DNA of 64,000 bases from an uncultured Chloroflexia bacterium (GCA_963810725.1 CAWEOO010000008.1:588189-652188), one strand, 5' to 3'; numbered from the stretch's first letter, positions 13,510 to 63,453 are shown. Notes: generated from the sequence alone by a model not told the origin. Numbers and translations: made by a program.

Positions 13510-13800
13510 TCAGCCCGAGGGCTTGATCTCGTCTGTGGCGGCCCGGGCGGCGGCCTTGTCCGTGTACCACGTGGCGTCGATCACGGTGAACTTCGCCCAC
13601 TCGGGCGGCAACGACTCTTCCGGGAAGATCGCGTTCACCGGGCATTCGGGCTCGCAGGCGCCGCAATCGATGCACTCGTTGGGATCGATGAACAGCTTGC
13701 GGTCCACGCCCTCTTCGTAGTGGATGCAGTCGACCGGACAGACGGACACGCACGAGATGTCGAGCACATCGATGCACGGCTCGGCGATCACATACGTCAT
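13510..13800 (-). CDS. fdxA: 7Fe-type ferredoxin
   Basis: The tail of ORF 13510..14529 from ATG 13800 reads [26 protein letters not shown]...[16 protein letters not shown]. These are the Cys patterns of a [3Fe-4S] plus [4Fe-4S] ferredoxin. Confidence 0.9.
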
Positions 13801-13882
13801 GCAGCGTCCTCCTCGAGCGGTGTCGGAACGTCCGAAATGCGCACCCCGTCGGCGCGGGTCCAGAGCGTACCACCGGCCGCGC

Positions 13883-14420
13883 TCACGACGCGCCGACCCA
13901 GCGTACGGGAACCTGCATCCCGCGCTCCCAGTGGCCGGGGATATGGCAGCCGACGATGAACGCCGGCGGGTTGCCGCCGGAATCGCCGGTCGGGACGGTC
14001 CACGATGACGTCCACGCGTTCGCCCGACCGAACGACGATGCGCAGACCCGAGACCTCGGGCGCCACGCTGACGACGGGCGTCGGACCGGGTGGCGCCCCG
14101 GCGACCGCGGCCTCGGCGCGCTCCCAGGCGTCCTGGACACCCGCGTCGCCGATGATCGCCTCGTGGACCTCGAGACCGCCGTTGATGACGTGCAGCAGCA
14201 CGGTCTCGCCGGGAACGAGGTCGAGGGTCGCAGGCAGGAACTCGTAGTCCTTCGCGATGAGGTTGACCTCGCGCGGGGCCGCGGAGGCTCCCGGGACGAT
14301 GGGCGGTGTTGCCGGGGCCGGGCCCGCCTCGCACGCGCCGGAAATGGCCGCGGCCACGGCGAGCAGGCCCGTCAGCGCGATGCGCTGGCGGCGGGCACCC
14401 GAACTGCGCCACCGATCCAC
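13883..14420 (-). pseudogene. cupredoxin-domain lipoprotein (azurin-like CxxPGH...M loop), frame interrupted near 14000-14010
   Basis: ORF 13797..14420 gives a signal peptide with lipobox (AISGAC) and cupredoxin strands ([30 protein letters not shown]). The copper loop [33 protein letters not shown] lies in ORF 13883..14140. Confidence 0.65.
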
Positions 14421-19417: not shown

Positions 19418-19588
19418 TCACATCGATGGCGCGTATCCCGGATCGAGGTATTTGTCCGGGTCGTCCTGGAACTCGAGCAGGCAGCCCTTGCCACAGAACC
19501 AGTAGGTCGTCCCGTCGTGCTCGAGGGACAGCTGCGAGGTCATGGTGTCGACCTCCATCCCGCACACGGGATCGATCGCGATGGCCAT
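19418..19588 (-). CDS. YHS/TRASH-domain metal-binding protein
   Basis: Tail of ORF 19418..19645 from ATG 19588: MAIAIDPVCGMEVD...YWFCGKGCLLEF. Confidence 0.75.
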   Translation of the reverse strand: MAIAIDPVCGMEVDTMTSQLSLEHDGTTYWFCGKGCLLEFQDDPDKYLDPGYAPSM

Positions 19589-22204: not shown

Positions 22205-23371
22205 ATGGCGAGTCCCCCCCGATCCGGCCGCTTCGCGCTCCAGGCTCTCGTCGTCGGCGCCATCGCGCTGCTGCTGGTGGCCATCGCGATCATCGCCGGC
22301 GTCGACCTGGTCGCGACCGGGCAGGGCATCGTGACCGGTCTCTACCCGCCGAAGGCCGTGACTGTTCAGGGCGAGCAGATCCGCGACCTCTACACGATCG
22401 TGTTCCTGATCGCGGTCGCGATCTTCTTCCTCGTCGAGGGGCTGATCCTCTGGACGGTGCTCCGCTACCGGCGCCGGCCCGAGGACGTGACCCTGCCCCC
22501 GCAGACCCACGGCAACGCCATCGCCGAGGTCGTCTGGACCGTCGTCCCGACCTTGATCGTCGCGTTCCTGTTCGTCATCTCGTGGCAGACCCTCAACACC
22601 GTCGAGGTCGTGTCCGCCGATCCACAGACCCGGATCAAGGCCGTCGCCGGCCAGTTCCAGTGGACGTTCGAGTATCTCGACGAGAGCGGGCAGAACACGG
22701 TCTACACCCAGCTGCTCCCCACCGGGGACGATGGCGGTCTCGTGCTGCCCGCTGGCCGCACGGTCCAGCTGAGCCTCGAGAGCCCGGACGTCATCCACGC
22801 CTTCTACGTCCCGCAGTTCCTGTTCAAGCGAGACGTCGTGCCGGGCCGGACCAACGTGTTCGAGATCACGGTCAACGAGGCCGATGCCGGCCAGACGTTC
22901 CGCGGTCAGTGCGCCGAGCTGTGTGGCGCCGGCCATCGCTTGATGCTGTTCGATGTCCACGCCTACACGCCCGCCGACTATGACGCGTGGCTCGAGGCGA
23001 GCATCGCCAAGGCCAATGCGAGCCCGTCCCCGGCGCCGTCAGGTGGACCTTCCGGGGCGCCGTCGGGTGGGCCGCCCCCGCCCGCCGGCCCCGCGCTGGC
23101 GGTGACGGCGTTGAACCTGGCCTTCCAGCCGACTGAGCTGCAGGCCGCGGCGGACACACCATTCAAGATCGACTTCGACAACCAGGACCCGAGCATCCCG
23201 CACAACGTCGCGATCCATGAAGGCGGCCCGACCGGACCTGAGGTCTGGAAGGGCGAGATCTTCCCGGGTCCGGCCAAGAAGACCTACGACGTGCCGCCGC
23301 TCAAGGCCGGTGCCTACGCCTTCATCTGCACGGTCCACCCCAGCATGACCGGCACCCTCACGGTCAACTAG
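22205..23371 (+). CDS. ctaC: cytochrome c oxidase subunit II fused to a C-terminal amicyanin-like type-1 copper domain
   Basis: ORF 22175..23371 (ATG 22205). It has two TM helices and the CuA site VIHAFYVPQF...CAELCGAGHRLM. A Pro/Gly/Ser linker leads to a second cupredoxin with PHNVAIH and the loop FICTVHPSMTG. There is no CxxCH heme-c motif. Confidence 0.9.
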   Translation: MASPPRSGRFALQALVVGAIALLLVAIAIIAGVDLVATGQGIVTGLYPPKAVTVQGEQIRDLYTIVFLIAVAIFFLVEGLILWTVLRYRRRPEDVTLPPQTHGNAIAEVVWTVVPTLIVAFLFVISWQTLNTVEVVSADPQTRIKAVAGQFQWTFEYLDESGQNTVYTQLLPTGDDGGLVLPAGRTVQLSLESPDVIHAFYVPQFLFKRDVVPGRTNVFEITVNEADAGQTFRGQCAELCGAGHRLMLFDVHAYTPADYDAWLEASIAKANASPSPAPSGGPSGAPSGGPPPPAGPALAVTALNLAFQPTELQAAADTPFKIDFDNQDPSIPHNVAIHEGGPTGPEVWKGEIFPGPAKKTYDVPPLKAGAYAFICTVHPSMTGTLTVN

Positions 23372-25901: not shown

Positions 25902-27008
25902 GTGCTCGAAGAGACCTGGACCGGGATCCTGGAGCTGCTGACGCAGTTCGTCATCCCCGATTGGGGCGCGCTGGTCGCCCTGCTCCCGGTCTTCATCTTC
26001 GTCCTCACCCTGGTCTGGCTGGTGATGACGTTCGTGCGCCTGTTCCGCGCGCCCAAGGCACGGCGCGGGAAGCGGCGCGTGGCCCCGCGGACGCCACCCG
26101 GCCTGCACATGCCCGGTCCGTCGTGGGCCCCGATCCTCGCCTCCATCGGCGTGTTCCTGCTCTTCCTCGGGGTGGTCTTCCCCGGCCCCATCCTGCTGCT
26201 CGGAGCCATCGCTCTCGGGCTGACCTTGCTGTATTGGCTCACGGAATCGACGCGGATCTACGATCAGGACCTCGGCGTTCGGACGGCGACTGAGCTGCCG
26301 GTCGTGGAGCGTGGGGGTCCGCCACCGGGCGTCCACATGCCGGGTCCGTCGTTCCGGCCGTTCCTCGGCGCCGTGGGCATGGGCATGCTGATGCTCGGCC
26401 TGGTCTTCGGCGGCTGGTTGCTGGCGGTGGGGGTGATCGCGCTCGTCGCGACGCTGGTCGGCTGGTTGATCGATGCCCGCAAGGAGTACGTCAAGGCCGA
26501 GGAGGCCGACACGACCGGCCACCTCGAGAGCATGCCCGCGCCGCGGACGCCGGGGTTGCTGCTCGTCGTGCTGGGCGTCCTCCTGATCGCCGGCGTGGCA
26601 CTCCAGGCCGGCTGGCTGCCGCCGCGCGACGTCAGCGGTGGCGAAGGCGCTGGGGCGTCCGGTGCCCCCCCGAGCGCGTCGGGTGGACCGGGCGAGCCCG
26701 GTGGCTCCGGCGAACCGCCAGCAGGGCCGACCGCGGACGTCGTGGTCCACGCCAAGGACATCAAGTTCGCCGAGGCCAGCCTGACCGGCCCCGCCGATCG
26801 ACCGTTCACGCTCGCGCTGGTCAACGAGGACGCCGGCACGCCCCACAACGTCGAGCTCAAGGACGGCGCCGGGGCCAGCGTGTACCAGGGCGAGGTCTTC
26901 AACGGAGTCGAGACGCGCGTCTACGCGGTGCCAGCGCTCGCCGCCGGGACCTACACCTTCCTGTGCACGGTCCACCCGAGCATGACGGGCAGCGCCACCC
27001 TCCAGTAG
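25902..27008 (+). CDS. polytopic membrane protein with two internal HMPGPS repeats and a C-terminal amicyanin-like cupredoxin
   Basis: ORF 25902..27008. It contains repeats PPGLHMPGPSWAPILASIGVFLLFLG and PPGVHMPGPSFRPFLGAVGMGMLMLG. After a Gly/Pro/Ser linker comes a cupredoxin with PHNVELK and FLCTVHPSMTG, a paralog of the CtaC tail. Confidence 0.7.
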   Translation: MLEETWTGILELLTQFVIPDWGALVALLPVFIFVLTLVWLVMTFVRLFRAPKARRGKRRVAPRTPPGLHMPGPSWAPILASIGVFLLFLGVVFPGPILLLGAIALGLTLLYWLTESTRIYDQDLGVRTATELPVVERGGPPPGVHMPGPSFRPFLGAVGMGMLMLGLVFGGWLLAVGVIALVATLVGWLIDARKEYVKAEEADTTGHLESMPAPRTPGLLLVVLGVLLIAGVALQAGWLPPRDVSGGEGAGASGAPPSASGGPGEPGGSGEPPAGPTADVVVHAKDIKFAEASLTGPADRPFTLALVNEDAGTPHNVELKDGAGASVYQGEVFNGVETRVYAVPALAAGTYTFLCTVHPSMTGSATLQ

Positions 27009-57566: not shown

Positions 57567-57730
57567 CGGGGTCCTGCCTCACGAGTGGGTCGAACGCGTG
57601 CCGTGCTCCGAGGATAGCAGGGCCGTCACGCGGCTCCCGACGGCGCGCGAGTCGCGGTTCGCAAGCGGGCTGCAACGGTTCCCGGCCAGTCGGTGGCGAG
57701 GCTCGCGGGTCGGCCGACCATACTGGGCCG

Positions 57731-57916
57731 ATGCTGAGTCAAGGTCTGCGCTTCCTGCTGTTGCGCTTCCTGCCCCGGCGCGTCCTGCCGATCCTCACCG
57801 CGATCGAGATCTTCCGGCTCGTCCAGCGTCTGCGCCGCCGCGGCCCGGAGCCCGTCGCGCCGCGGCGACTCGTGACCACCGACCCTCCCGCGAATGACCG
57901 TCCTGACTCCGGCTGA
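57731..57916 (+). CDS. small basic hypothetical protein
   Basis: ORF 57731..57916, product MLSQGLRFLLLRFLPRRVLPILTAIEIFRLVQRLRRRG.... I recognise no domain, and an ORF of this size in GC-rich DNA may be spurious. Confidence 0.2.
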   Translation: MLSQGLRFLLLRFLPRRVLPILTAIEIFRLVQRLRRRGPEPVAPRRLVTTDPPANDRPDSG

Positions 57917-57949
57917 TTCCGGCGTTCGCGACTCGGTGGCCGAACTCGA

Positions 57950-58402
57950 TCAGGAAGTCGCGACCGGCTGACGGAGGTCGGCGTTGCCGTCTCCCTCGCC
58001 CGTCCACCAGTCGGCATGCTCGGCGTCGAGCCGGATCAGCGTGACATTCGCGTCTTCGGGGCCGTTCGGGAACCAGCGCCCGAGCTCGGGCAGCCAGTAC
58101 TCCTTCTTGAGAGAGGGATCAGTCTCGAGCGTCGCCCGGCCGCTGATCGAGATGAAGTCATACGACTCCTCGGCCCGGTAGGCCGCCACCGCCTCCGGAT
58201 CGGCCTGTAGCTCGGCCACGAGCCGGCCGTCGGTCGGAGCGAAGAACCACGATCGCCCCTCCCACTCGACCTGGCCATTGTTCGACATGGGTCGGGCGTG
58301 GAGTTGGCCACCGTCGCCGCGCGTGCTGAAGAGACAGATGTCGATCTTGCCGATCAGCGCGGCGATCTGAGGAATGGCCTCGCGGCCTGAAGCGTCGGTC
58401 AT
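57950..58402 (-). CDS. pyridoxamine 5'-phosphate oxidase-family protein (general stress protein 26-like)
   Basis: ORF 57950..58513 with start at ATG 58402 (MTDASG). Pattern: ICLFSTRGDGGQLHARPM...WFF...YRAEESYDFISISGRATLETD. Confidence 0.7.
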   Translation of the reverse strand: MTDASGREAIPQIAALIGKIDICLFSTRGDGGQLHARPMSNNGQVEWEGRSWFFAPTDGRLVAELQADPEAVAAYRAEESYDFISISGRATLETDPSLKKEYWLPELGRWFPNGPEDANVTLIRLDAEHADWWTGEGDGNADLRQPVATS

Positions 58403-58550
58403 CTGGAAGTCCTCGAATCGGTCGGGCTGGGGGTGGCTCCAACTTTGGGCTGTCGACCGACCTGTGCGTGCCACAGGAGGACCGCTACTGCTGCAGGATC
58501 GTTGCATCCGCAATCAGGGGCGCTATGCCCGCGCCCGTCCGCAGCGAGGG

Positions 58551-59132
58551 TCAATGAGCCGTGGTGCCACCGTGATCGTGAGGGGTCTCGAGCGCACCGG
58601 GCGCGGTCAGGGCCGGAGCGTCGTTGGGGTGTGGGTGTGCTGCACCGTCGGCATGGCCATGGCCATGGCCACTGAGACCGTCGGCCATGGCGAAGGTCGT
58701 CGCGAAGACGACGAAGCCGATACCGACGAGGAACGCCGCCCTGGGGCGCGGGCTCGGGCGCGTCGCCGACCGGCTACGCACAGGACCAGCGCCGCGCAGG
58801 CGAGGCCGGGCGGCCAACATCGACAGCAGGACGATCTCGAAGGCAACGGCGGTCGCATCGGCGATGCCTACCGGCTCCGGACCACCCGGGATCATCGGCA
58901 GTCCGATGGTCCGCGACCAGGCCCACGCGAAGATGACGGCGAGATTGATCCCGATACCCGTCCGGACAAGCGGCCGCGAGCGAGGACGAGCCAGGAGGGC
59001 CAGCGCGAACGCGGCCTGGAAGAAGGCGACCCAGTAGAACCCAAGGGCGAGGTCCCCCAGTGGTTCCACGTGCGTCGACGCGGCCGCGAGGTGGATCGCG
59101 GCGGCGCCGATCGAGAGACTGGCGACGAACAT
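58551..59132 (-). CDS. four-TM membrane protein with His-rich C-terminal tail
   Basis: ORF 58551..59327; the start is probably ATG 59132 (MFVASLSIGAAAIHLAAASTH) or 59213. The tail is GHGHGHADGAAHPHPNDAP...ETPHDHGGTTAH. Confidence 0.55.
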   Translation of the reverse strand: MFVASLSIGAAAIHLAAASTHVEPLGDLALGFYWVAFFQAAFALALLARPRSRPLVRTGIGINLAVIFAWAWSRTIGLPMIPGGPEPVGIADATAVAFEIVLLSMLAARPRLRGAGPVRSRSATRPSPRPRAAFLVGIGFVVFATTFAMADGLSGHGHGHADGAAHPHPNDAPALTAPGALETPHDHGGTTAH

Positions 59133-59346
59133 CGTCTCCGCACGCCGTGACTGCCGTACGGAAGCCGCGGCTCCGTGGTTGGTGCGCCGGCGGTGAGCGA
59201 CCTGGGGGAACATGGCGGCTGCGTTGATCGAGCTCATGGTCATTGGCCTTGCCGGGACTCCAGAGAGGCGCGCCGAGGCGGGCTCCCTCGGGGGAAGAAG
59301 AGGCGGTCGACGGGGAGGAACCGTCAACCGCGAGAAACGAGTGGAG

Positions 59347-60615
59347 TTACTGGCCGAACTTCTCCGGCATCTTGGTGACGATGGCCTCGGAGAGGACGTC
59401 GCCGGTGGCCCACATGTGGGTGTAGCCCATGCCCATCAGCTCGTACGCCATTGCGTAGTCGCCCGCCGCGTAGGCGTCGATGGAGCCGGCCAGATGCTTG
59501 ATGTGCGAGTCGAGCTCAGCCGACAGAACGTCGGCCGGGAGATCCGTGGCCGATGCCAGGAAGGCGCCGAAGTCGCGCGAGTAGCCGGCGAGATCTTCGC
59601 CTGCCTTGGTCTTCTTCGCGTCGTCCTTGGTCGCGGTCCCGACGGTGTAGTCGACGAAGAAGCCGATATGGGCGCGCCACAGCTCGAGGAAGGTCGCCTG
59701 AGCCTCATCACCGAAGACGGACCCGATCGCGTCGCCGAGGGCGACGGTATTGGTCTCGAGCTGGCCGGCGGCCGCATCGAAGGCCTTGGAGCCCTCAAGG
59801 CCACGATGGGTGGCGTTGGAGGCCAGGAAGGCGTGCTCGCCGAGCGCGCTGTCGAGGGCGACCCGGAGGTCGACGGCCGACTTGGTCGCGTCGTCCATCG
59901 CGGCGAACTTGTCCGGGAATTTGGCCGCGATCGCGTCGGCAAGGGTGCCGCCGGTGGCGACCATGTGCTGGTAGGCCATGTCGGTCAGCTCGTAGGCCTT
60001 GGCGTAGTCGCCCGCCGCGTAGGCGTCGACCGACCCGGCCAGGTGCATGACGTGGTTGTTGAGCTCCGCTTCGAGAACGTCTGCGGGCAGATCCGTCGCA
60101 CCGGCGAGGAACGCACCGAAGTCGCGGGAGTAGCCGGCGAGATCTTCGCCCGCCTTGGTCTTCTTGGCGTCGTCCTTGGTCGCGGTCCCGACCGTGTAGT
60201 CGACGAAGAAGCCGATATGGGCGCGCCACAGCTCGAGGAAGGTCGCCTGAGCCTCATCACCGTAGACAGAACCGATCGCGTCGCCGAGGGCGACGGTGTT
60301 CATTTCGAGGGCCGCAGCGGCCGCCTCGAAGTCCTTGCCACCCTCGAGCCCGCGATGGGTCGTCAGCGAGGCGAGCAGGGCGTGCTGCCCGAGGCCGCTC
60401 GCGAGCGCGTAGCGCAGGTCGGCGGATGGGCTCTTGGTCGTGGGAGCCATCGCGTCGGGTGACATGGACGGGGCCACGCTCGGTTCGGTCGAGGGGGCCA
60501 TCGTGGCCTCGACGGACGGCGCCGTCGCGGGTGTGGTGGTGGCTCCGCCGCCCGTGCAGGCCGCGACGAGGATCGCGGTGCCGAGCGTGCTGAGCGCGAG
60601 AGTACGTAGCTTCAC
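59347..60615 (-). CDS. lipoprotein built from two tandem helical repeats of about 183 aa, hypothetical
   Basis: ORF 59347..60615. Lipobox ILVAAC, then a Thr/Pro/Ser linker. Two copies of LGxHAxLASxxTHRGLEG...TFLELWRAHIGFFVDYTVGTATKDDAKKTKAGEDLAGYSRDFGAFLA...AYAAGDYA.AYEL follow. Confidence 0.7.
   Translation of the reverse strand: MKLRTLALSTLGTAILVAACTGGGATTTPATAPSVEATMAPSTEPSVAPSMSPDAMAPTTKSPSADLRYALASGLGQHALLASLTTHRGLEGGKDFEAAAAALEMNTVALGDAIGSVYGDEAQATFLELWRAHIGFFVDYTVGTATKDDAKKTKAGEDLAGYSRDFGAFLAGATDLPADVLEAELNNHVMHLAGSVDAYAAGDYAKAYELTDMAYQHMVATGGTLADAIAAKFPDKFAAMDDATKSAVDLRVALDSALGEHAFLASNATHRGLEGSKAFDAAAGQLETNTVALGDAIGSVFGDEAQATFLELWRAHIGFFVDYTVGTATKDDAKKTKAGEDLAGYSRDFGAFLASATDLPADVLSAELDSHIKHLAGSIDAYAAGDYAMAYELMGMGYTHMWATGDVLSEAIVTKMPEKFGQ
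59569..59748. repeat. near-identical core of the intragenic tandem repeat, copy 1
   Basis: Matches 60118-60297 at an offset of 549 nt (183 codons). I count about 7 mismatches in 180 nt by hand. Confidence 0.8.
60118..60297. repeat. near-identical core of the intragenic tandem repeat, copy 2
   Basis: See 59569-59748. Confidence 0.8.
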
Positions 60616-60719
60616 GAGAATGGGTTCTCCTTGCCTGGGGGCCGGTGTCCTGCATCCTGTGGTCGGACGCGGAGGACGCCGTTGATACGGCGGTGACCCT
60701 CTCAGGGATGACTCCGCGC

Positions 60720-61130
60720 TTACGGCGTGACCGTGACGACGCCCTTCATGAAGTCGTGACGTGCGCAGTAGAACGGGTAGGTACCCTCGTCGGTGACGGT
60801 GTATGAGAACTCGACGCCGGTATCGATCTCGCCCGAATCGAAGAGTCCGGAAGGGCTCGCAGGATCGCCGGATGTCACGGTATGGAGGGAGTCCTCATCG
60901 TTGACCCACGTGACCGTCGTCCCGACCGGCACCGTGAGGTCGTCCGGTGCGAAGGCGAAGCCCTTGATGCTGATGGCATCGACCATCCGGCCGTCGGATG
61001 CCGGGCCCGACGCGGCCGGAGTCGGCGCTGTCGTGGGCTCGGCCGTTGCCGCCGGGCTGGCGCATCCGGCGACCGCCATGAACGCGACGAGGGCGAGGCT
61101 CGCTCGAGCGAGCGCGAGGATATGGGGCAT
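60720..61130 (-). CDS. blue (type-1) copper lipoprotein, amicyanin/plastocyanin-like
   Basis: ORF 60720..61130. Lipobox AVAGCA. The cupredoxin has VTWVNDEDSLHTV (His ligand) and the loop YPFYCARHDFMKG (C-x2-H-x2-M). Confidence 0.8.
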   Translation of the reverse strand: MPHILALARASLALVAFMAVAGCASPAATAEPTTAPTPAASGPASDGRMVDAISIKGFAFAPDDLTVPVGTTVTWVNDEDSLHTVTSGDPASPSGLFDSGEIDTGVEFSYTVTDEGTYPFYCARHDFMKGVVTVTP

Positions 61131-61211
61131 CGGGGTCTCCTGAGGGCGGGGTCGTACTCCGCGGATACGCAGCGACGCCCCATCTGGACCGTTCCAACCG
61201 TGCCATCACTC

Positions 61212-61237
61212 GGGACGGATCCGCTCGCTCATTCGTT
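61212..61237 (+). promoter_or_regulatory. candidate ECF-type promoter GGGAC-N17-CGTT upstream of sigma module 4
   Basis: GGGAC is at 61212-61216 and CGTT at 61234-61237. The GTG start at 61247 would make the mRNA nearly leaderless. Confidence 0.3.
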
Positions 61238-61246
61238 GGTATCGGT

Positions 61247-61832
61247 GTGACGACCCTCGCGAGCGCCGCCACGGTGTCCCTGTTTCGCCGCCTGGATGCG
61301 GCGCCGGATGAGCGCGACCTGGTGACATCGGGGCTCGACGCCGAGACCTTCGAACAGGTCTACCGCGACCATTACCGCGACGTCCAGCGGTACGTGCTGC
61401 TGATGGTCGGTCGCCCGGACGACGTCGAGGACATCGTCGGCGACACGTTCCAGCGCGCGTTCACGGCCTGGCGGTCGGGGCGCGGGCCGGCCGGCCGGTC
61501 GCTGCCGTGGCTGCTGCTCATCGCCCGCCGGATCGTGACCGACCGCTGGCGTCGTGCCCGGCTCATCCGATGGCTGCCGCTCGGTGGCAGCGCCGCATCC
61601 GAACCGCGCGACGTGGACGCGGCCACGGAACGCTCGGAGTTCTGGCTGTGGCTCGCGCAGCTGGCGCGGGTGCTCGTCGGACCGGCAGCGAGAGGTCGTT
61701 TACCTGCGCTACCAGCGCGACCTGACAGATGAGGAGATCGGGGAGATCCTCGGGCTGTCCTCGTCCGGGGTCCGATCCCTGCTCGCGCGGGCGATCGCCG
61801 CGCTTCGCCAGCATCCGGAGCTGTGGTCATGA
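61247..61832 (+). pseudogene. ECF sigma-70 factor (module 4), frame break near 61672-61678
   Basis: ORF 61247..61732 gives region 2 (FEQVYRDHYRDVQRYVLLMVGRPDDVEDIVGDTFQRAF) up to FWLWLAQLARVL. Region 4 (DRQREVVYLRYQRDLTDEEIGEILGLSSSGVRSLLARA) is in ORF 61554..61832. Confidence 0.75.
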
Positions 61833-63373
61833 CCATCGATTCGCGCGACGAGCGCATCTGGGCCGGACTGGTCACGCGGCTGGAGGGCGTGGAGGCGCAC
61901 GTCAAGGAGCCGCCGCCGTGGCGCGGCGCCGAGCCCTCGAGGGCCCGGCCGGACCGCGTCGCCCTGGGACCCACGCTCGTCGGGCGAGCAGCCCAGGCAT
62001 CGCGCCGGCCGACGTCGCGCCGCCCGCTAGCGATCGGCGGCGCTGCCCTGGTGTTCGCGCTCATCGCGGTGACGCTCGTGGCAAGACCGACCGGGCCGGA
62101 TCGGTTCGGTGCGTCGCCTCCGGCCTCGTCATCTGGATCCGCACCGCCCTCCGGTTCAGCGGCGAACACGTGGGGTCCACTCGCGGTCATCCCTCCCCAG
62201 GATGGGGCCGACACGGCGCGGGACGAGGGCACGCTGCGCATCACCGACACCTGCGTGACCCTGGAGCGTGCTGGCGAGGTCCAGCTGCTGTTCTGGCCCG
62301 CCGACCGTACGACCTGGGACGGCGTGGCGCGGGCCGTCACCTTCGAGAACTTCGACGGAACCGTGGTAACGGTGAGCGACGGGGACGATGTGGTCCTCGG
62401 CGGCGGCGGGGACAGCGAACTGGAGAGCGGTCGCTCCGCCCAGGAATGGGTCGACAGCATGGAGTGGGTCGCACCGCCGGATCCCTCGTGCCCACTCGAA
62501 TCGCGGTGGGGCGTCGGTGCGGTAGAGCGCGTAGGGGCCGGACCACAGGCCTCCCCGATCGTGACGGAGGCCGAAGCGGGGGGCTTGAAGCTCGTGGCGA
62601 CCTTCGATCGCATGGAGGTCGAGGCCGGTGGCACCGTCACCGTCGCGCTGAGCATCGAGAACACCCGCCCGACCGACGTCGTCTTCGACGAGCCGTGCGA
62701 CGTGCCGGCGATGACCGTCGCGGTGCGCGCTCCGGTCGAGCCGATCGGGCGCGACTGGGATGGGATCGCGGCGGCCTTCAAGTCCTATGCGCTGGAGACG
62801 AGCACGGGAACGCCCATCGAGTCCTCGATCCGCGAACCCCTTCGCACCAACGCCAAGGGTGAGCCGTGCCATGCGACGGCGAGTGAAGCCGGCGTCGGCG
62901 GCACGCTGAAGCTGATCGAAGCGGGAACGACCTACGAGACCTTGCTGACCTGGGCGGCCGAGATCGTGCCCGGCGTCCCTGCGGCCCCAGGTCCTGCACC
63001 CTACACCATCGCGGTCGCCTTCGATCACAAGGAAGCCGGTAACGGCCTGTTCAGCGTCGAGTCGCTCGACGCGACCGGGACGATCACCGTGCTGGAGGGC
63101 GCCCCGAGCGCGATCAGCGCCGGTGAGGCGCTGGACGCCGCTCTTGGCGATCGGGAATTCGCCGCCTGGCTCGAGCAGCAGCCGAAGGACTCGTGGGGGA
63201 ACGCCAACCTGTTCCTGCAGGGCCGGGCGTTCGGTGTCGATGTCCTGCCGGAGGTCCCCTACTGGGACGTCGAGCTGTACCGCGAACCGCGCAACTGGGC
63301 GGTCCTGTACATCGACGCGATGAGCGGCGAGGTCCTGCGCAGCACGTTCTGCGACATCCCGTGCGACCGCTGA
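61829..63373 (+). CDS. single-pass membrane partner of ECF sigma (putative anti-sigma) with large extracytoplasmic domain
   Basis: ORF 61823..63373. ATG 61829 overlaps the sigma stop (ATGA). The TM helix is LAIGGAALVFALIAVTLVA. A Ser/Pro linker leads to a domain of about 400 aa with paired Cys and a PepSY-like end (LYIDAMSGEVL). Confidence 0.55.
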   Translation: MTIDSRDERIWAGLVTRLEGVEAHVKEPPPWRGAEPSRARPDRVALGPTLVGRAAQASRRPTSRRPLAIGGAALVFALIAVTLVARPTGPDRFGASPPASSSGSAPPSGSAANTWGPLAVIPPQDGADTARDEGTLRITDTCVTLERAGEVQLLFWPADRTTWDGVARAVTFENFDGTVVTVSDGDDVVLGGGGDSELESGRSAQEWVDSMEWVAPPDPSCPLESRWGVGAVERVGAGPQASPIVTEAEAGGLKLVATFDRMEVEAGGTVTVALSIENTRPTDVVFDEPCDVPAMTVAVRAPVEPIGRDWDGIAAAFKSYALETSTGTPIESSIREPLRTNAKGEPCHATASEAGVGGTLKLIEAGTTYETLLTWAAEIVPGVPAAPGPAPYTIAVAFDHKEAGNGLFSVESLDATGTITVLEGAPSAISAGEALDAALGDREFAAWLEQQPKDSWGNANLFLQGRAFGVDVLPEVPYWDVELYREPRNWAVLYIDAMSGEVLRSTFCDIPCDR

Positions 63374-63378
63374 TTCCC

Positions 63379-63453
63379 TGGCGAGCCGGGTGGGATTCGA
63401 ACCCACGACACAGGGATTAAAAGTCCCCTGCTCTGCCGCTGAGCTACCGGCCC
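63379..63453 (-). tRNA. tRNA-Lys (UUU)
   Basis: The reverse complement is GGGCCGG-TA-GCTCAGCGGCAGAGC-A-GGGGA-CTTTTAA-TCCCT-GTGTC-GTGGG-TTCGAAT-CCCAC-CCGGCTC-G-CCA. It forms a full cloverleaf with an encoded CCA. Confidence 0.9.

Follow-up and report, generated by a model that had tools for sequence, protein, structure and literature searches.

A two-repeat helical lipoprotein family linked with cupredoxins and SigK/RskA-type sigma systems in Chloroflexota and other phyla

The SigK/RskA systems of the ECF18/ECF19 type, known for example from Mycobacterium tuberculosis, consist of an extracytoplasmic function (ECF) sigma factor and a single-pass anti-sigma factor with zf-HC2/RskA_N and RskA_C domains, and the protein chiefly linked with them is secreted or lipid-anchored, its function being unknown. 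In M. tuberculosis, the targets of SigK-RskA are the lipoproteins MPT70 and MPT83. In EfeO, a component of the EfeUOB iron uptake system, a cupredoxin is joined to an imelysin/M75 metal-binding domain that is helical and two-lobed, and EfeO acts together with a membrane permease. RskA-like anti-sigma factors define the ECF214/18/19 clade (PMC7826278), and the input signal of SigK/RskA systems is unknown (PMC7509140). The present analysis concerns three minus-strand genes, named A, B and C here, in a 64,000-nucleotide stretch of an uncultured Chloroflexia genome (C8:588189-652188, hereafter the window), which encode a blue-copper lipoprotein (A), a two-repeat helical lipoprotein (B) and a membrane protein with a His-rich tail (C) (Table 1). 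The chief and more interesting result is a link at the family level between the B lipoprotein, SigK/RskA-type ECF systems and cupredoxins.

The source assembly comprises 3.5 Mb in 10 contigs and is 79% complete, the G+C content of the window is about 70%, and the nearest public relatives are soil metagenome-assembled genomes (MAGs) labelled 'uncultured Chloroflexia'. A preliminary description of the cluster, made from the sequence of the window, had read B as a 422-residue lipoprotein with two helical repeats, and the open reading frame (ORF), the lipobox, the repeats and a helical model all agree with it. The lipobox (VAAC) is followed by a disordered Ala/Pro/Thr linker and then by the two repeats, which have a period of 549 nucleotides and share 81% identity at the DNA level and about 78% at the protein level. 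A core of about 60 identical residues is common to both repeats (59904-60203 and 59355-59654), suggesting recent gene conversion between them. Distant homologues likewise have two repeats, and complete single-repeat genes were also found. More than 2140 homologues were present in a word-indexed protein collection, and relatives of B occur in at least 523 species genomes; the carriers are Chloroflexota, Actinomycetota (Gaiellaceae, Solirubrobacterales), Methylomirabilota, Binatia, MAGs labelled 'delta proteobacterium' and many Bacillota.

The AlphaFold2 model of B (predicted local distance difference test score, pLDDT, 86; predicted template modelling score 0.83) contains 12 long helices, six per repeat. 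B has no match in Pfam, NCBIfam or PHROGs, a profile search against PDB sequences returned designed helical proteins alone, and Foldseek of the model against PDB gave nothing below E = 0.1, the matches being generic helical bundles and transporters only. Weak Pfam matches over 30 B homologues (DUF3209, Nitrate_red_del and DUF4363 at E<=1) were scattered and were taken as helical noise. In BFVD, one B repeat matched a 209-residue Bodo saltans virus protein labelled 'glycosyl transferase' (A0A2H4UVS3) with a target-normalised template modelling score of 0.80, a root-mean-square deviation of 1.7 Å and 19% identity, predicted structures being compared; several phage proteins of about 220 residues and a Pithovirus protein were further matches.

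Site conservation in B was read from 81 sequences across all carrier phyla, which number at least five. His78/261, Asn106/289, Trp130/313, His133/316, Tyr140/323, Tyr162/345, His188/371 and His217/400 are invariant in both repeats (81/81), and Met218/401, Glu77/260 and Asp197/380 are nearly so. The set includes 32 Bacillota sequences without a cupredoxin neighbour, in which the key residues are still invariant. Because the invariant polar residues sit mid-helix on helices 1, 2, 3, 5 and 6 of the AlphaFold2 model, each lobe may hold one buried metal site, the convergence of the histidines being drawn from these mid-helix positions alone.

The RefSeq product name of B homologues is 'copper amine oxidase' (e.g., WP_065524945.1). 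No such Pfam or NCBIfam domain was found in B or in 30 homologues, Pfam recognizes no domain at all in the RefSeq-named Planococcus protein, and B, as an all-helical 422-residue lipoprotein, shares the name alone with copper amine oxidases; the label is probably an inherited misannotation. B was also not recognized as a DUF305/CopM protein, since the profile was absent even at E<=1 over 30 members, nor as an imelysin/EfeO M75 protein, since there was no Peptidase_M75 match in Pfam and no imelysin among the Foldseek PDB matches. By analogy, the locus resembles EfeO in that a cupredoxin and a bilobed all-helical module would lie outside the membrane, separate or fused, with a membrane protein gene nearby. 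It differs from EfeO in that neither sequence nor fold matches, C is no FTR1/EfeU permease, and there is no EfeB peroxidase.

The surroundings of B were surveyed by calling and clustering stop-to-stop ORFs in 80 loci (32 from Bacillota, 17 from Actinomycetota, 16 from other Chloroflexota, 8 from remaining groups and 7 from the closest relatives). Two neighbour clusters are the most frequent, one of ECF sigma factors and the other of anti-sigma factors with zf-HC2, RskA_N and RskA_C domains, the same composition as in the SigK/RskA systems. In 47 of the 80 loci, a SigK-like sigma gene with an RskA-type anti-sigma gene is found no farther than 2.5 kb from B, namely in 25/32 of Bacillota (RskA anti-sigma, 28/32), 10/17 of Actinomycetota, 9/16 of other Chloroflexota, 3/8 of the remaining groups and 0/7 of the closest relatives. 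Single-repeat B genes stand directly 3' of sigma-RskA in loci L090 and L091, with a DUF4331 gene divergent from them. DUF4331 recurs beside sigma-RskA-B (L090 1595-2893, L091 2260-3558, L025 7249-8895), and a DUF4331 gene is 3' of B in four loci; a literature search found no publication on DUF4331, nor on RskA together with cupredoxins. At the class level, where B, C and RskA_C were counted over 61 genomes, an RskA_C protein is present in all nine genomes with B and in 35 of the 52 without it.

The second partner of B is the cupredoxin, which lies within 700 nucleotides on the same strand in 31 of the 48 non-Bacillota loci: 6/7 of the close relatives, 13/16 of other Chloroflexota, 8/8 of Methylomirabilota/Binatia/'delta' and 4/17 of Actinomycetota. 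B-plastocyanin fusions occur in P0020, P0022 and one ORF of L032, and a plastocyanin gene adjoins B on a Planococcus plasmid. On the 12-kb plasmid of Planococcus lenghuensis (L089, 5314-7437), the B homologue is followed by a class F sortase gene, which suggests cell-wall instead of lipid anchoring in some Bacillota. In the window the cupredoxin is A, which was earlier described as an amicyanin-like secreted copper lipoprotein; this is borne out by a match to Copper-bind (PF00127; 1.2e-10, 42.1 bits against a cut-off of 21.2), a VAGC lipobox and all four type-1 ligands, His83, Cys122, His125 and Met128 (CARHDFM). A Cupredoxin_1 match (1.5e-8) was also obtained, and the ligands corresponding to H83/C122/H125/M128 are retained in 37-38 of the 39 cupredoxins that adjoin B homologues. 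With the profile cut-off passed and the ligand set complete, A is a plastocyanin/azurin-type cupredoxin. It is not an amicyanin proper (TIGR02657 equivalog, 37.2 bits against a cut-off of 110.2), and its amicyanin likeness is confined to the C-x2-H-x2-M spacing. A and B are a conserved lipid-anchored pair on the outer face of the membrane.

No SigK-like gene stands beside B in the window. The best match in the same genome to the B-linked sigma factors is C8:1428974-1429645 (212 bits), which shows 65% identity with the B-linked sigma of L026 and 59% with its counterpart in L039. An RskA-type anti-sigma gene follows directly 3' (170 bits on the model; RskA_C 49.6 bits against a cut-off of 29.4). 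The pair at C8:1429004-1430464, with its sigma and its anti-sigma both recognized, is a SigK/RskA-type module located 780 kb from the cluster. A second SigK-like pair occurs at C8:323791-325363, the RskA gene of which has an in-frame TGA, and about 50 ECF sigma genes are present in the 3.5 Mb. The arrangement departs from known SigK/RskA systems in two respects: the target is remote from its putative sigma in this genome, and in place of a FAS1-domain protein it is a helical lipoprotein with His sites, frequently accompanied by a cupredoxin.

Promoter motifs were sought by two-block motif counts upstream of 44 B-linked sigma genes. The motif is GTGATCC-N16-CGT(T/A)AGCT in Bacillota, and in Chloroflexota TGATCC or TCATCC is followed after N16-17 by CGCATAG or CGTATCC. 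L067 and L096, whose sigma gene diverges from A-B, each have three copies of GTCATCC-N16/17-CGTA, which precede the sigma gene, a small membrane protein gene and the cupredoxin-B operon; in L026 and L039, xATCC-N16-CGAA sites are on the B side. The small membrane protein gene (L067 4762-5240 and L096 ~1912, Limnocylindria), with GTCATCC-N17-CGTAT upstream, is absent from the window and may be in the same regulon.

In the window, the A-B spacer contains CATCC-N16-CGTATC, which is the sole match in 64 kb (0.00 expected). The relaxed pattern ATCC-N16/17-CGTA[TG][CG] has 24 matches in the genome (7 Mb, both strands), so that the chance of one match in the 104-nucleotide A-B spacer on this strand was estimated by us as about 4e-4. 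Both blocks are kept in 7/7 close relatives and the sequence between them varies, a pattern expected of a promoter. A weaker promoter-like site lies upstream of A; its -35 block has G at a position where the nucleotide A is nearly invariant, and its relaxed pattern has 83 genome hits. The blocks GTCC and GCTGCGTATCCGCG of this site are shared by the window with L001, L004 and L007, irrespective of the presence of the sigma gene adjacent to A. The sequence patterns make a regulatory link of B to a SigK/RskA-type sigma factor likely. The preliminary description had proposed ECF control of the cluster; a conserved ECF-type promoter candidate before B supports such control, and the adjacent sigma gene and the GGGAC-N17-CGTT motif then named as its agents are not retained.

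Some other signals around B and A were considered. The B leader (60616-60683 on the minus strand, about 70 nucleotides) is unusually conserved in close relatives; a hairpin predicted in it (GUCCU..GCGUCC-loop-GGAUGC..AGGAC) had one compensatory pair only and was not established, and Rfam found nothing in 58400-61400. A perfect ATGATCC-N16-CGTATCC at C8:1595350 has no downstream gene on that strand and is probably a chance match. The spacer upstream of A has nothing that fits the consensus of a sigma-54 site or of a CsoR, CopY or CueR operator.

Table 1. Features of the cluster and its flank, with positions counted from the first letter of the window.
Feature	Position	Strand	Remark
C, membrane protein with five predicted helices and a His-rich tail	58551..59243	-	family of 3950 clusters at E<=0.001
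Terminator-like hairpin	59303..59331	-	16 nucleotides after the B stop codon
B, lipoprotein of 422 residues with two 183-residue six-helix repeats	59347..60615	-	undescribed family
ECF-type promoter candidate for B, CATCC-N16-CGTATC	60684..60710	-	A-B spacer
A, amicyanin-like type-1 copper lipoprotein of 136 residues	60720..61130	-	Sec/SPII signal, Cys23 lipobox
Weaker promoter-like site upstream of A, GGTCC-N16-CGTATCC	61163..61190	-	
GGGAC-N17-CGTT	61212..61237	+	10 nucleotides before GTG 61247
Adjacent ECF sigma gene, in two frames	61247..61832	+	one extra base near 61675
Single-pass membrane partner of the adjacent sigma, 516 residues	61823..63373	+	start overlaps the sigma stop codon
tRNA-Lys(TTT)	63379..63453	-	ARAGORN; edge of the segment bearing the adjacent sigma pair

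Together, A, B and C probably form a real envelope module for metal handling. The envelope copper-handling or redox module of the preliminary description is still the best reading, and we infer it from the co-conservation and fusions of A and B, the His sites of B and the tails of C. On the more specific proposal, drawn from sequence comparison, that this is an accessory module outside the membrane with SigK/RskA-type control of B and probably of A, our judgement is evenly balanced. Because both have Sec-type lipoprotein signals, A and B would reach their folded state, and take up a simple ion, outside the cell. The metal is probably copper, to which the cupredoxin partnership and fusions, a chemistry of His, Met and Trp, and the C family's CopC/DUF305 context point. 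In such a module, B would bind the metal at one site per lobe and hold it or pass it on, the cupredoxin A would be its redox partner that changes or senses the redox state of the metal, a division of tasks for which the two halves of EfeO are the closest analogy, and C would be an occasional membrane partner. B would be the signature target of the SigK/RskA-type ECF system, with the distant sigma at C8:1429004-1430464 driving B from its promoter candidate and perhaps A from the weaker site, and the adjacent sigma would be an unrelated neighbour with its own promoter. The patchy distribution of B, including its absence in two of three sampled same-genus genomes, marks it as an accessory trait.

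Several results weigh against this proposal. The RskA-B association within the class is statistically weak (hypergeometric probability about 0.04 by our estimate), and B and C also co-occur weakly at the genome level, being found in 9 and 8 of the 61 genomes and together in 3. The chromosomal B loci of Bacillota have neither cupredoxin nor C, and copper is thus not required by the context of the B family everywhere. As for the promoters, a weight-matrix scan, with a matrix built mostly from AT-rich Bacillota sites, was unspecific in this 70% G+C genome, where hits above 9 bits numbered in the thousands and did not include the site upstream of A; the genome's own SigK-like gene has variant -35 (GTGAACC) and -10 (CGCACTA) blocks.

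The order most often seen, with sigma, anti-sigma and B on one strand (25-28 of the 32 Bacillota loci, and L090 and L091), mirrors rpoE-rseA-rseB, in which RseB acts on RseA. By this analogy, B might be a co-sensor outside the membrane: bound to the ectodomain of RskA, it would tune the release of sigma through the state of its His sites, and the cupredoxin would feed in a redox or copper signal. The signal of SigK/RskA systems has been stated to be unknown (PMC7509140), and the extreme site conservation in both lobes suits a sensor. However, B is unlinked from any RskA gene in seven of the nine class genomes that have it and possesses its own promoter candidate here, while the cupredoxin fusions and the plasmid sortase neighbour suit a surface effector better. 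The co-sensor function, which apart from the role of B is compatible with the metal-handling module, seems unlikely.

Cupredoxins are usually encoded beside their redox partners. The window contains two oxidase-linked cupredoxins, as the preliminary description had stated, with Copper-bind matches at 23105-23368 and 26742-26999, and A and B might accordingly be a respiratory or other electron-transfer pair that feeds the cupredoxin-fused aa3 oxidase of the window and has no part in metal homeostasis. For B this would mean a redox-active role, as enzyme or as carrier, through a metal centre or a Tyr/Trp radical chain, and its invariant Tyr, Trp, His and Met residues would suit an electron relay. 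Against this, the patchiness of B (9/61 class genomes, absence in two of three same-genus genomes) befits an accessory and not a core respiratory function, B is tied to a stress-type sigma system, Bacillota carriers lack an adjacent cupredoxin, and the Sec signal of B speaks against a complex cofactor inserted in the cytoplasm. This possibility is less probable still than a co-sensor.

The metal-handling module under the distant SigK-like sigma also has to be set against the neighbouring sigma gene. The ECF sigma/anti-sigma pair reported there has both sigma regions, with Sigma70_r2 in 61247-61732 and Sigma70_r4 in 61554-61832; the two are in different frames, and the partner has no RskA domain in Pfam. 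Compared with the intact orthologue of L004, the gene reads CTCGTCGG where the orthologue has CT-GCCGG, and the extra base is not in a homopolymer run. Other window genes are also broken, and an assembly error is plausible for this reason, besides a pseudogene. The sole Pfam match of the 516-residue partner is PepSY at 4e-4, below the cut-off, with a weak PepSY-like C-terminus, and this protein is conserved in L004 only (2e-267). The pair was rejected as a SigK/RskA-type system because the partner lacks RskA_C and the sigma reaches 29 bits on the B-linked sigma model, near the bottom of the roughly 50 ECF genes of the genome, and is 26-31% identical to B-linked sigmas. The adjacency to A-B is probably incidental, given the frameshift, the low model score and the number of ECF genes in the genome.

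The motif GGGAC-N17-CGTT, earlier read as a promoter of the trio in the shared upstream region (61131-61246), is present there, on the plus strand, facing the sigma gene and away from the trio. The bare pattern is at chance level in the window (1 found, 0.67 expected), and CGGGACGGATC and TTCGTTG are kept in L004 inside an otherwise diverged spacer; judging from this sequence context, it is probably the adjacent sigma gene's own promoter. It is very improbable that the trio is one operon under the adjacent divergent sigma through the shared spacer, as first proposed from the divergent arrangement, the 116-nucleotide spacer and the motif conserved in L004, since no copy of that spacing faces the cupredoxin gene, most close relatives lack the sigma pair and keep A-B with the upstream blocks, the sigma is frameshifted and outside the B-linked family, an ECF gene is expected about every 70 kb, and a terminator-like hairpin stands between B and C.

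The comparison of relatives also shows how the sigma pair is placed. It is present in one of the seven closest loci (L004). In L001, the cupredoxin gene has the tRNA-Lys gene as its immediate upstream neighbour and the sigma pair is missing from that interval; in L007, the 3' end of this tRNA is likewise seen upstream. A 258-residue gene without Pfam match, which is not found in the window, lies in L001 (4319-5095) between a 2-hydroxyacid dehydrogenase gene and tRNA-Lys. The neighbourhood of tRNA-Lys is a hot spot of insertion and deletion on both sides.

C is the least constant member of the cluster. It lies near B in about 11 of the 80 loci, in several lineages and in three gene orders (A-B-C, C-A-B and B-A-C); of the trio whose co-conservation was to be checked, the A-B pair is strongly co-conserved and sometimes fused, and C accompanies it loosely. 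The hairpin between B and C has an 11-bp stem with 8 G-C pairs and a T/C-rich tail. No promoter motif of the B-linked type precedes C in the window, and such a motif is upstream of C in a same-genus genome with the order C-A-B. When the window was compared with L001, A and B had about 88% DNA identity, and C together with a PNPOx-like gene between A-B and pspC had no megablast match, the C proteins being 57% identical. The C/PNPOx-like stretch (57568-59299, against L001 7313-8923) is a sharply faster-evolving segment within conserved synteny.

The open frame of C runs 58551-59132/59327 on the minus strand, and its start may be ATG 59243 (230 residues, as in homologue P0121) or ATG 59132, which has a GGAG motif upstream. 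The His motifs and tail given in the preliminary description are present, that is, AAIHLAAASTH in the first helix and GHGHGH...HPHP...HDH at the end; its four transmembrane helices become five in the model (pLDDT 71), and its start at 59132 may have to move to 59243. Both His of AAIHLAAASTH are invariant in 19 C homologues, in which H51, H58, Q76, N100, W107, R111, E123 and D129 are the invariant residues, and the GHGHGH tail would face outward by the positive-inside rule. His-rich tails are common in the family, whose long members have His/Asp-rich segments behind the last helix. C has no match in Pfam or NCBIfam and none in PDB (Foldseek of the model gave nothing below E = 0.1), and the earlier statement that B and C fit no described family holds in all of these searches, by sequence and by structure.

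One C-family protein has an N-terminal CopC domain and is encoded between PepSY_TM and DUF305 genes. Together with the His-rich tails, this recalls the Cop/Pco systems, in which CopC-CopD fusions occur. B and C differ from these in having no CopC, CopD or DUF305 profile match, and the cluster has no P-type ATPase, CsoR or CopY. C was not accepted as a CopD-type protein, since CopD gave no match and the analogy with the CopC fusion is the sole tie. The contigs of distant C-family members are mostly too short to show gene context.

Elsewhere in the window, a YHS-domain protein that had been pointed out lies near 19573 on the minus strand (Pfam YHS, 3e-15). A further cupredoxin lipoprotein had been placed at 13883-14420; a short cupredoxin-type motif is there, and the gene is frameshifted and its conceptual join has no Pfam match. 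At 13797-14420 on the minus strand, the C-terminal motif of the cupredoxin-like gene is in another frame. Instead of at least four type-1 copper domains in 64 kb, three are confirmed by profile (11 in the 3.5-Mb genome).

RskA-type ECF systems are widespread, with mycobacterial SigK among them, and neither what they sense nor what their main secreted targets do is known. In several phyla, it is the unnamed and misannotated B family that accompanies such systems most consistently in genomes; its members number in the thousands, their His-rich site is strictly conserved, and pairing or fusion with a blue-copper protein is frequent. Correcting the 'copper amine oxidase' label matters for these proteins, and the case of the window illustrates that the neighbouring sigma gene is not always the regulator. 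It is possible, though doubtful, that B represents a new metalloprotein family outside the cytoplasmic membrane, with a six-helix fold that lacks a solved structure, is usually duplicated and carries an invariant four-His/Asn/Trp/Tyr site, and that the SigK/RskA-type systems of Bacillota, Actinomycetota, Chloroflexota, Methylomirabilota and other groups use it as a conserved co-sensor or effector. The module is present in cultured Bacillaceae and B should purify easily, which offers a testable handle; Halobacillus, Rossellomorea aquimaris and Mesobacillus are cultured carriers of sigma-RskA-B. If this is true, the ligand of B would reveal the long-unknown input or purpose of SigK/RskA-type sigma systems.

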